A stretch of 21,195 nt of DNA from the IMG/VR virus record IMGVR_UViG_2534681940_000040; one strand, given 5' to 3'. This stretch comes from a virus (taxonomy: Duplodnaviria > Heunggongvirae > Uroviricota > Caudoviricetes). The position numbers and the translations under genes were made by a program. Positions within the stretch are counted from its first letter, which is position 1; every line of letters begins with the position of its first letter. This document shows positions 1,008 to 2,454 of the stretch, piece after piece. Below the pieces are notes generated by a model, which did no database searches, had not been told where the DNA came from, and worked only from the letters and a program-made list of their open reading frames with translations.

Positions 1008-1313
1008 TTACTTATCACATAAATCAAATGCAGCCTTAGTGACATCCCCCAGACTCTTTTTTAACCCTGGGGCGGCATCATTATCTAGCCAAAATGGATT
1101 ATTGTTATCTAACGGTAACGCACCAAATGTTTTACCTTTTATTCGAGCCAAACCTGTAAGTGCATATAACTTATTATCGTCAAAATTCATCACATAAGGA
1201 TTACCATCAAGACACTGTAATTGAACCTCATCAGTATTAAATGGCCATACCCCATTGAAACTCTCACGTTCAATAGTTTTAAAAGGCATTGCGACGGCGG
1301 AAAAAGAAAACAT
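1008..1313 (-). CDS. small Cys-containing exported-type protein; 5' end apparently frame-disrupted
   Basis: 101-aa ORF from ATG 1313 with no SD. An SD-proximal ATG at 1354 (GAGGT, 6 nt spacing) opens a different frame that stops after 8 codons. The in-frame upstream codons encode a signal-peptide-like stretch (KKVQLLVTFLSMFSFSAVA) but contain no start codon. Confidence 0.5.
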   Translation of the reverse strand: MFSFSAVAMPFKTIERESFNGVWPFNTDEVQLQCLDGNPYVMNFDDNKLYALTGLARIKGKTFGALPLDNNNPFWLDNDAAPGLKKSLGDVTKAAFDLCDK

Positions 1314-1383
1314 AGATAAAAAAGTAACTAATAGTTGAACCTTTTTACTTTCATATCATTACCTCAATTTAGCTCAAGTAAGA

Positions 1384-2034
1384 TTACAAATTAAAAAACG
1401 CCCTAGAAATGACACCGCCTACCAAAACCCCTACGCAGATAAAGAATATTATTTCTTTTGGATAAAGTCGGATTAATTCTGAAGCACGAAGTCGGACTTC
1501 TGGTAAGGTCGAACTCTCTATGTGGCTTGATGCCGATTGTTGCTCTAACCACGACAATGCAGACTGTAACTGAGAACGAGTAAGATCGTTTAAACGTCCT
1601 GTACCGAAATTGATATGGCAATACCGCAGAAGTTTTTGTCGAAGTCCACAGTCTTCACTGTTACGTAGTAATAAACTTACAAGAGCCTTACAGGCATCAT
1701 GATCTTTACATCGCTCAAGCATTGCATGCAGAAAACTCTCCGCTGTTTTATATTGATTTACTGTCATATCATCAATACCAGCTACACCAATCTCCGCATG
1801 TACTTTTTGCCAAATAATAAACGCTTCAGTATTGCTAGCTTCTGCAATAGCAGCAACCAAGCTATTTAGCTCCTTACGCTGAGCCTTAAGCAAAGGGCGA
1901 TCGTCATCATCATTATTCGAAGGGATTGCGATATTGACGGTATGAGAACCATCATATCGCTCTATCTGAATATTCTTTTCGTGAAAATCACGCCCAGCAA
2001 CGCGATTGTTTGAACCGTTTGAGTTGACGGCCAT
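1384..2034 (-). CDS. hypothetical protein with one C-terminal transmembrane anchor, co-oriented 16 bp downstream of the repressor
   Basis: 216-aa ORF, ATG at 2034 preceded by GGGAGGTGA. C-terminal hydrophobic segment IIFFICVGVLVGGVI. N-terminus NGSNNRVAGRDFHE resembles the repressor C-terminus. AT-rich. No family recognised. Confidence 0.75.
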   Translation of the reverse strand: MAVNSNGSNNRVAGRDFHEKNIQIERYDGSHTVNIAIPSNNDDDDRPLLKAQRKELNSLVAAIAEASNTEAFIIWQKVHAEIGVAGIDDMTVNQYKTAESFLHAMLERCKDHDACKALVSLLLRNSEDCGLRQKLLRYCHINFGTGRLNDLTRSQLQSALSWLEQQSASSHIESSTLPEVRLRASELIRLYPKEIIFFICVGVLVGGVISRAFFNL

Positions 2035-2049
2035 GTCACCTCCCTACTA

Positions 2050-2454
2050 TCACCTACCCTTAGTTTCGTTATAGTCACGACCAGCGATACGGTTATTACC
2101 ACCAGAAATATTTAACTCACGTCCTGATGGCTGAGTTTCCTTTTCACTGATCGCACCTTTTAAAGCCCCAATCACCGCGTTTTTCACATCTAACGAAGCT
2201 GCTCGAAAGCGAGTAATCAATTCCTGCTCATCATCGTTATAAGTTTCAGGTGAGTGAATTCCCAACACAACATACTGAACATCAAGGCCAAAACGAGACA
2301 GCGCTGCCAAATACGCAGCATCAGGAAAGCTATCTCCTTTCTCATATCTAAGCTGAGTTAGCTTTTTGACTCCACCAATGTCGCTCATGGCAACTTGACT
2401 AAGTCCCAATCTTTCCCTTTCCTCACGCAACCGCCGACCAATATCATTTTTCAT
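2050..2454 (-). CDS. XRE-family helix-turn-helix transcriptional regulator, probable prophage immunity repressor (C/CI-like)
   Basis: 134-aa ORF with N-terminal Cro/CI-type HTH (LGLSQVAMSDIGGVKKLTQLRYEKG). Sits next to the divergent promoter region and upstream of int, as the repressor does in P2/186. Confidence 0.8.
   Translation of the reverse strand: MKNDIGRRLREERERLGLSQVAMSDIGGVKKLTQLRYEKGDSFPDAAYLAALSRFGLDVQYVVLGIHSPETYNDDEQELITRFRAASLDVKNAVIGALKGAISEKETQPSGRELNISGGNNRIAGRDYNETKGR

Follow-up and report, generated by a model that had tools for sequence, protein, structure and literature searches.

In prophage Sp13 (CP-933T) of Escherichia coli O157:H7, the immunity repressor and a membrane protein encoded directly downstream of it (hereafter the partner) carry the same short peptide, which is positioned at the C-terminal end of the former (the tail) and at the N-terminal end of the latter (the head). 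Matching tails and heads recur in related P2-like and Mu-like phages, in which the two peptides fall into several sequence classes that co-vary within the pairs. The window, i.e. the whole stretch of DNA that was analysed, comprises 21,195 nucleotides (IMG/VR record IMGVR_UViG_2534681940_000040) and is 99.94% identical to the Sakai copy of Sp13 over positions 1735–18744. Evidence throughout is that of comparative sequence analysis. On this basis, direct pairing of the tail with the head is probable, while the chances appear about even for the wider proposal, namely that homotypic peptide pairing couples the repressor to its membrane partner and that the partner sets the amount of active repressor. 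The features of the two genes, all on the minus strand, are as follows.

2050–2454, minus strand: immunity repressor with an XRE-type helix-turn-helix (HTH) domain, 134 aa (Pfam HTH_31/HTH_3, phrog_8, PDB profiles, AlphaFold2 (AF2) model)
2065–2118, minus strand: tail motif, repressor residues 113–130, ELNISGGNNRIAGRDYNE, followed by the short basic end TKGR
2035–2049, minus strand: intercistronic spacer of 15 nt, TAG TAG GGA GGT GAC, with a Shine-Dalgarno sequence 5 nt before the ATG
1384–2034, minus strand: partner protein, 216 aa, with head motif, Flk_N helical domain and C-terminal tail anchor (phrog_5825, PF27202, AF2 model)
1978–2031, minus strand: head motif, partner residues 2–19, AVNSNGSNNRVAGRDFHE
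1519–1899, minus strand: Flk_N helical domain, partner residues 46–172
1393–1452, minus strand: C-terminal transmembrane (TM) anchor, partner residues ~195–214 (hydropathy, conserved G202/G206, AF2 helix)

The shared peptide and its conservation across phages

The resemblance between the end of the repressor and the beginning of the partner, which the initial annotation had reported as 11 identities over 18 residues, is real, but the number of identical positions is 10 of 18 (ELNISGGNNRIAGRDYNE versus AVNSNGSNNRVAGRDFHE). The local BLOSUM62 score of the tail against the head is 62, whereas shuffled sequences scored 21.8 on average (standard deviation 4.4) and none of 20,000 shuffles reached 62; similarly, the score between the full-length repressor and the full-length partner was reached by none of 5,000 shuffles. 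As also claimed previously, the two copies differ at synonymous positions: six of the ten identical residues are specified by different codons and the underlying DNA is identical at 31 of 54 positions. A recent DNA duplication or gene conversion in this window is ruled out by these figures. The synonymous differences between the two copies point to selection acting on the peptide. In the six frames of the 21-kb window the motif was not found a third time, be it on an antirepressor or elsewhere.

Both peptides are approximately 18–22 residues long, rich in G, N and Q and contain alternating hydrophobic residues; they are located at chain ends and are modelled with low confidence, or as disordered, in the AF2 monomers. 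In the partner the head extends into a second, degenerate repeat reaching to about residue 39. In relatives such as those at loci L135, L140 and L143 this second 'GRD..NI' repeat is plain.

Nine genomes, belonging to Rosenbergiella, Mixta, Izhakiella, Enterobacter, Erwinia, Symbiopectobacterium, Hafnia and Arsenophonus, encode a homologue of the partner directly after an HTH repressor. In these genomes the repressor tail ends with ..SGxGNRVAGRDFNENKK and the partner homologue starts with MxVNSxGxxNRVAGRDFxEN; the tail form ..SGxGNRVAGRDYNENKK is conserved in repressor homologues. The gene order HTH (tail), Flk_N (head), variable cargo and int was observed in all nine genome loci and in 81 of the first 90 related loci, and IMG/VR contigs display the same order of the pair with differing cargo. 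Prophages of Klebsiella, Enterobacter, Serratia, Yersinia, Pectobacterium, Gilliamella, Pseudomonas and Ralstonia also contain the module. The head motif is nearly invariant and ranks among the best-conserved parts of the partner family. The earlier view of the motif as a conserved peptide feature is thus borne out by its retention across homologous loci, and partner homologues adjoin a motif-bearing HTH gene wherever both ends are readable, a point that the initial annotation had marked for checking.

Repressor homologues from the wider set have in common the HTH domain and a helix (..FRxAPLAVKAAALAALTAG..), but their G/N/Q-rich tails are very different. Among 195 loci of the repressor family, 193 have an open reading frame (ORF) on the same strand that starts between −30 and +90 nt from the repressor stop codon. 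These 193 loci yielded 83 unique pairs and, subsequently, 34 non-redundant pairs from P2-like and Mu-like phages; the sampled loci are those ranked best in the scans rather than a census. For the 34 non-redundant pairs, the mean local score between the tail and its cognate head was 44.9, compared with 27.8 for non-cognate combinations, a result which was not obtained in any of 10,000 permutations. The cognate head ranked first of 34 for ten of the tails. The classes are illustrated by the following pairs.

P2-like phages: tail NRVAGRDY, head NRVAGRDF
Brenneria Mu-like phage: tail QVFHGDINGQFAGNKIVN, head QEFNGTAQGQFSSRDIIN
Pseudomonas aeruginosa Mu-like phage: tail QQFNGPVGTVTSGDVVN, head QQFHDRVHQVAAGDIKN
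Gilliamella: tail KQVFNSKVSGQVSAENIYN, head EQNFYGQVDQVAANNIYN
Locus L158: tail KQVFHGAVSGGVAARDIINN, head MQEFQGNVDGGVAGRDIVNQ

A single duplication followed by drift would render cognate and non-cognate pairs equally similar. The excess of cognate similarity therefore implies either concerted evolution or repeated acquisition of the peptides, and both of these imply selection for a match between tail and head. Repressor homologues lacking the tail (P0219 and P0239) served as controls, and no such partner is encoded downstream of them; locus L238, where the repressor has no G/N-rich tail and which hence is also a control, has no such partner either.

The match between tail and head persists when the body of the partner is not of the Flk_N type. 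Of the proteins encoded downstream in the 34 non-redundant pairs, 28 have a TM segment according to hydropathy; three of the six others are products of non-matching ORFs. The partners are of three types: Flk_N proteins with a C-terminal anchor (190–216 aa), bitopic proteins in which a coiled coil and a single TM segment are combined with a small Cys-containing domain in the periplasm (261–341 aa), and short 2-TM hairpins (118–173 aa), one protein of the last type having a zinc ribbon and two predicted TM segments. In Ralstonia phage YO107_2 (L259, positions 1444–2708) a single tail (MQVFHQAPTGDIFGRDLV) is accompanied by two head-bearing membrane proteins (QEFSGPVGDVAGRDIIN and QDFHGPVGQVAGRDIIN), comprising a bitopic protein with a Cys domain in the periplasm and a 2-TM hairpin, which suggests that several partners can be linked to a single repressor. 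The genes for the repressor and the Flk_N protein of Ralstonia phage YO077_2 are convergent, and the peptides still match (NGGSNNVQIGSV and TDGNGNVQIGKV).

In the long partners (L146, L158, L159, L162, L167 and L259) the C-terminal ~60 residues, which follow the TM segment, hold a small, conserved periplasmic module with the pattern C-x-F-x-G-x-x-Y-x-x-G-[SA]-[IV]-x-D/N ... C. It is without a match in Pfam and may function as a sensor.

Repressor, partner and their surroundings in the prophage

Among PDB profiles, the HTH domain of the repressor is nearest to the N-terminal domain of P22 C2. In the AF2 model, the HTH domain (residues 1–64) is followed by two helices (residues 74–101) and a G/N-rich tail (residues 102–134), which is disordered (predicted local distance difference test, pLDDT, <50); neither the Pfam scan nor the model revealed an S24 peptidase domain. 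The protein is annotated as neither P2 C nor 186 CI. A weak match of the HTH domain to the RstR family and weak, generic matches to MqsA/HipB-type proteins were obtained with NCBIfam, and PADLOC-DB v2 returned only weak matches to RmrA and control-protein HTH domains. The gene is found in the position of a repressor gene, divergent from Arc/Cox-like early genes in P2-like phages or from Ner-like early genes in Mu-like phages; in the latter, its homologue adjoins the Ner-like and transposase genes. By its placement, which is also close to int and the att end, and by its predicted fold, the HTH gene is classed as that of a peptidase-less phage immunity repressor of the XRE/C2 type. The initial annotation had entertained the possibility that the true repressor lies elsewhere, which is not supported, as the HTH gene holds the repressor position in P2-like and Mu-like phages and is the annotated phage repressor of Sp13 (ECs_2620, 'phage repressor protein', in Sakai). 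Apart from the tail, it is an ordinary XRE-type phage repressor.

The 216-aa partner is known in Sakai as ECs_2619 ('membrane protein') and its product is named 'hypothetical protein' or 'membrane protein' by PGAP. It belongs to PHROG 5825 (E=8.5e-103), for which the function is given as 'unknown', and precomputed Pfam matches to PF27202 (Flk_N) are present on nearly all of its close homologues. The partner is 28% identical to E. coli Flk (BLASTP, E=2e-10) and aligns to positions 20–149 of the 339 positions of the NCBIfam Flk equivalog NF007987 with a score of 58.2 bits (E=8e-16; cutoff 353). It is therefore a Flk_N-domain protein and not Flk. Of the profile and structure searches recommended in the initial annotation, the former gave PHROG 5825 and, far below its cutoff, the NCBIfam Flk profile, whereas fold searches with the partner gave no informative match. 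Neither the 216-aa nor the 101-aa protein matched any anti-phage defence system in PADLOC-DB v2, and the partner did not match any toxin family in Pfam, NCBIfam or PADLOC; the cargo protein of 101 aa likewise had no defence or toxin match in NCBIfam. None of these searches assigns a function to the partner, in keeping with its initial annotation as part of a candidate undescribed system. Among phage GenBank records, the partner family was encountered only in one E. coli phage, where it is unannotated, and in three Ralstonia phages.

In the AF2 model of the partner the head (residues 1–45) is disordered (pLDDT <50), the helical domain (residues 46–172) is confidently predicted and a terminal helix spans residues 184–215. 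The C-terminal TM anchor noticed previously is evident from both this helix and the hydrophobic stretch at residues ~195–214. Since only two residues extend beyond this stretch, the partner is probably tail-anchored in the inner membrane with the remainder exposed to the cytoplasm, by analogy with Flk, for which a tail anchor and a cytoplasmic bulk were shown by experiment (PMC6794478).

The flk gene of E. coli K-12 (L011, positions 1951–2946) encodes two tandem Flk_N repeats followed by an anchor and no head motif, and chromosomal Flk may be a domesticated relative of the prophage partner proteins. Weak matches to Mu GemA are displayed by Flk as well as by a relative that is fused to Rha (P0351).

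The spacer between the two genes, previously given as 16 bp, is 15 nt long. The TGA codon of the repressor gene (2050–2052) is followed by two further in-frame stop codons (TGA TAG TAG) and then by a strong Shine-Dalgarno sequence, an arrangement which suggests that the translation of the two genes is coupled. The two ORFs share a reading frame in the window and in most relatives, in which the spacers measure 9, 15 or 18 nt. A fusion of the two by read-through or frameshifting was considered and rejected: there are three consecutive stop codons, the frame is not kept at loci L002–L004, L009 and L087, and no fused homologue was found. As no terminator-like site was detected between the repressor gene and int, a single leftward operon resembling P2 C–int is probable, in agreement with the initial assignment of the 216-aa gene as a repressor-linked accessory gene of the lysogenic operon. 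The remaining features of the region are listed below.

1–1002, minus strand: tyrosine integrase (int), 333 aa, final gene of the leftward operon (Pfam Int_N, Phage_integrase)
1008–1354, minus strand: gene for a DUF2511/YebY-like periplasmic protein, frameshifted (Pfam DUF2511, relatives)
1008–1313, minus strand: 101-aa ORF, the open remainder of the DUF2511/YebY-like gene
2455–2529: switch region between the repressor gene and the early operon (consensus matches only)
2443–2461/2477–2495: imperfect 19-nt inverted repeat (sequence match)
2464–2492, plus strand: promoter-like site (consensus match)
Within the switch region: direct repeats ATACCAAAATGA/ATACCACTATGA
2530–2736, plus strand: Arc-like early gene, divergent from the HTH gene (phrog_3431)
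2753–2956, plus strand: Cox-like early gene, divergent from the HTH gene (phrog_575)
5598–5828, plus strand: P4 epsilon-like derepression protein of the early operon, ECs_2631 (Pfam PF25738 'Derepression', E=1.1e-7, above cutoff)

The four minus-strand ORFs of the initial annotation (int, 101 aa, 216 aa and the 134-aa XRE-HTH protein) are all present. The 101-aa ORF belongs to the DUF2511 family (PF10709, E=1.6e-6, 28.9 bits against a cutoff of 21). More than 60 relatives have a run of six A residues (A6) and an intact 115-aa precursor with a Sec signal peptide (MKVKKVQLLVTFLSMFSFSAVA, then MPFK...), whereas the equivalent run in the window (positions 1342–1346) consists of five (A5). Owing to this 1-nt deletion, the ATG codon (1352–1354) and the signal-peptide n-region are in a frame different from that of the 101-aa ORF. 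The gene of Sakai (ECs2618, 348 nt) is intact; the A5 state is also found in a phage record (520873; NC_049344) and reflects a genuine frameshift or, alternatively, a sequencing error in the homopolymer. The 101-aa protein had been described as of the exported type, which fits the relatives with an intact signal peptide, but in the window the start of the signal peptide is cut off. Moreover, the slot between the partner homologue and int is variable: depending on the locus, it is filled by DUF2511, by a membrane protein of 244 aa, by an acidic protein of 102 aa or by a protein of 292 aa. The DUF2511/YebY-like protein is interchangeable cargo, and the three-gene module of the initial annotation reduces to what, across the loci compared, appears as a conserved unit of two genes, repressor and partner. 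The cargo hotspot is seen at loci L002–L005 and L008 (at about 5630–6500 in each), with the 244-aa membrane protein occurring in two genera. DUF2511/YebY is also a cargo gene in the immunity region of an unrelated Pseudomonas prophage (L256, positions 4036–4368).

The segment 1008–2454 is found in 521 of 5,426 complete E. coli genomes. As noticed before, this block is AT-rich, with a GC content of 0.35–0.43 compared to ~0.54 in most of the remaining window. The window contains two copies of the IS3-family element IS629 (10469–11484 and 18743–19799), the second of which has no counterpart in Sakai Sp13, so that the prophage in the window is a further-decayed variant of Sp13. A 205-aa ORF (5287–5904) overlaps the epsilon-like gene and is labelled 'antirepressor protein' in Sakai (ECs_2630); it has an odd composition and may be spurious. 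The most AT-rich part of the window (GC content of 0.35) holds a 201-aa ORF on the minus strand (12115–12720), which is located between a tail-fibre assembly fragment and tail genes; its product resembles hexapeptide-repeat acyltransferases (Pfam match below cutoff) and the gene is probably another moron. Finally, a ParM/StbA-like gene and its partner partition gene (9172–10513, plus strand) follow the replication gene of this P2-like prophage, hinting at plasmid-like maintenance in this prophage lineage.

Proposed coupling of repressor and partner, and alternative explanations

Because the disordered chain ends of the two proteins are similar rather than complementary and co-vary, like-on-like stacking would be the simplest way for them to interact, with tail and head copies aligned as beta strands. 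In-register beta stacking requires similarity, not complementarity, and, by analogy, would operate here as it does in the HET-S/NWD2, BASS and Bab/Agp pairs. As the majority of partners are anchored in the membrane and expose the head to the cytoplasm, pairing would bring the repressor to the membrane; the partner would retain part of the repressor pool at the inner membrane or serve as the platform for its assembly there. The second repeat of the head (..GRDF.E.NIQ...IGRD..NI..) recalls a two-rung nucleus, onto which the single-repeat tail could dock. In phages with repressors that lack a RecA-cleavable domain, the partner might then tune or switch the active repressor pool according to the state of the membrane or envelope and, as an anti-repressor or sequestrator, modulate the lysogenic switch from there. 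Physical binding, the stacking geometry and the direction of the effect on repression are all parts of this proposal.

The behaviour of Sp13 is relevant in this respect. The prophage excises spontaneously, and its circular form increases about 30-fold with mitomycin C (PMC2669165). The authors of that study found the inducibility remarkable, the repressor being devoid of a peptidase motif, and proposed the P4 epsilon-like gene for repressor inactivation (PMC2669165). Coupling of the repressor to the partner would fit phages with repressors that are not cleavable after DNA damage, and with it the inducibility of Sp13.

Several considerations weigh against the coupling proposal. The P4 epsilon-like gene could alone explain Sp13 induction and is the main confounder of any reading that builds on it. 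A modulator that is co-transcribed 1:1 with the repressor needs an extra signal, and none was identified. The AF2 monomer models show no structure for the motif. Within the NRVAGRD class the excess of cognate over non-cognate identities is marginal (9.64 versus 9.29; reached in 100 of 2,000 permutations), which confines the claim of covariation to the class level. Three of the 34 non-redundant pairs (L186, L216 and L238) do not match and a fourth locus, L161, matches weakly. Finally, the charged R-D pair of the motif is atypical of amyloid cores. In a stronger version of the proposal, tail and head would be a functional amyloid-like signalling motif (cross-beta, in register) with templating and would form a prion-like, membrane-triggered lysis-lysogeny switch. 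In such a switch the partner, equipped with the two-repeat nucleus, would cluster upon a membrane or envelope cue and template the polymerization of repressor tails, which would either turn the repressor off, leading to prophage induction, or lock a heritable state. We regard this version as tentative and rather doubtful.

The same observations can be read differently. The pair might constitute an addiction, abortive-infection or exclusion module with the membrane partner as the effector, kept inactive by the repressor tail in the manner of the tail of an XRE type II antitoxin; loss, titration or degradation of the repressor would then free a membrane-damaging or entry-blocking partner. An HTH gene in first and the partner gene in second place, the tight spacing and the disordered repressor tail would suit such a module, and almost without exception the partners are membrane proteins, some of which, the short 2-TM hairpins, recall small membrane toxins. 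Their position in the lysogenic operon is that of lambda rexAB, about 500 E. coli genomes have kept the pair intact although Sp13 is heavily decayed, and E. coli Bab/Agp, with the same motif layout, is an abortive-infection system. However, the partner has no PADLOC or NCBIfam match to defence or toxin families, and is thus not the downstream gene of a known toxin family by which type II toxin-antitoxin systems are recognized. The Flk_N domain is also present in a non-toxic chromosomal regulator, similarity of peptides in place of complementarity is foreign to toxin-antitoxin interfaces, and in decaying endosymbiont copies (L007) head and tail undergo degradation jointly, unlike what would be expected under addiction; an effector role is therefore considered unlikely. 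Less probable again is that the peptide serves as an address shared by the two proteins, which a host factor (for instance a protease such as ClpXP, Lon or FtsH, a chaperone or a targeting factor) would recognize in each of them without contact between the two. Both peptides are terminal and disordered, as are degrons, basic residues follow the tail motif, and there is a precedent in the Mu repressor, which belongs to a different repressor family and the stability of which ClpXP controls through the C-terminal tail. A host reader that is conserved would nevertheless be expected to keep the tag constant, whereas classes differ widely in phages of Enterobacterales, and several of them co-exist within Gilliamella (L132, L138 and L148), each matching its own partner.

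Two further explanations were weighed. The partner could be a Flk-like, membrane-tethered regulator of the flagellar type III export switch, for which the motif would be incidental; its role would then be lysogenic conversion of motility or of sensitivity to flagellotropic phages. The Flk_N homology and the identical tail-anchored architecture speak for this, as does the location of Sp13 near fli genes in Sakai, but the score of the partner (58 versus 353 bits) lies far under the Flk equivalog cutoff, Flk has two Flk_N repeats and no head motif, and the tail-head match is kept with non-Flk_N bodies and in hosts of very different biology, making this explanation very improbable. The idea that the similarity is a functionless relic, left by a stop codon that split an ancestral HTH-Flk_N-TM protein or by a duplication at the junction, could draw on the common frame and the short spacers (9, 15 or 18 nt) of most loci. 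It is close to refuted: neither 213 repressor homologues nor 133 Flk_N representatives included a fused protein, the frame differs at L002–L004, L009 and L087, both peptides are among the best-conserved parts of the proteins despite synonymous divergence, and distinct classes match within pairs, including those with unrelated bodies and the convergent pair.

Relation to known systems and significance

The closest parallel to the repressor/partner pair is provided by amyloid-signalling pairs, i.e. fungal HET-S/NWD2, the bacterial BASS1–10 pairs of Bell and NLR proteins, and E. coli Bab/Agp (BASS11). In these a C-terminal peptide of ~20 residues equals the N-terminal peptide of the product of the neighbouring gene, and the peptides are likewise G/N/Q-rich with alternating hydrophobic residues and form several classes that match within pairs. 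In E. coli, Bab/Agp is also prophage-borne. The pair considered here differs in that it combines a DNA-binding repressor with an integral membrane protein, and not a Bell/HeLo pore-former with an NLR or other sensor; it has no NTPase or oligomerizing sensor domain, and its motif contains a conserved charged R-D pair. NACHT, NB-ARC, Bell, TIR and CHAT domains were all absent from the pair in Pfam, PADLOC and NCBIfam scans. The repressor/partner module is thus laid out like the amyloid-signalling pairs without being a member of them: the first defining feature, one motif at the facing ends of two neighbouring gene products, is present, whereas the second, an NLR or other sensor combined with a Bell-type effector, is lacking. 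No HTH protein or repressor partner is mentioned in the amyloid-signalling literature that we searched. For BASS11, peptide fibrillation was followed by thioflavin T (ThT) fluorescence and electron microscopy (EM), and foci of green fluorescent protein (GFP) fusions and N-to-P mutants were assayed (bioRxiv 10.1101/2024.11.07.622273).

Flk (RflH/DivA) of Salmonella and E. coli resembles the partner in its Flk_N domain, C-terminal tail anchor and cytoplasmic bulk; unlike the partner, it is about 331 aa long, chromosomal and not linked to a repressor. As regards the logic proposed here, in which a partner would take a repressor out of circulation by aggregation or by retention at the membrane, precedents exist in the inactivation of RstR by RstC through aggregation in CTXphi and in the membrane sequestration of Mlc by PtsG. 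The partner has no homology to the proteins of these systems, RstC being soluble and satellite-encoded, and no shared terminal peptide is known in either RstR/RstC or Mlc/PtsG.

In lambda, rexAB are co-expressed with the repressor in the lysogen, and in P2 int is located downstream of the repressor gene. The partner gene, too, would be an accessory gene co-transcribed with the repressor, yet the likeness to rexAB is positional only, without a sequence relation to RexA or RexB (no PADLOC match), and P2 and 186, in contrast to Sp13, have no gene between C/cI and int. P4 epsilon acting on P2 C represents another protein route to the inactivation of a peptidase-less P2-type repressor, and an epsilon-like gene is carried by Sp13 itself; epsilon, however, is a small soluble early protein with neither the shared motif nor a membrane anchor. 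No description of a repressor/membrane-protein pair with a shared terminal peptide, of Flk in prophages or of the function of these Sp13 genes was found in the open-access literature searched.

For non-cleavable repressors few exits from lysogeny are known, examples being antirepressors (Tum, epsilon) and quorum or peptide signals. If the coupling proposal is correct, the wiring of a repressor to a membrane protein by a matching peptide would represent a new input channel for lysogeny exit, and possibly the first case of a transcription factor placed under like-on-like peptide pairing of the amyloid-signalling type. The idea of pairing is directly testable by the prediction it makes for swapped motifs. 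Should the amyloid-like version hold, amyloid signalling would reach beyond cell-death effectors to the control of transcription, and the switch would be common to P2-like and Mu-like phages from both Gamma- and Betaproteobacteria. The pair also places the Flk_N domain, known from the poorly understood flagellar regulator Flk, in a functional context for the first time, and it is a candidate for the unexplained inducibility of Sp13 and for control of lysogeny independent of the SOS response.

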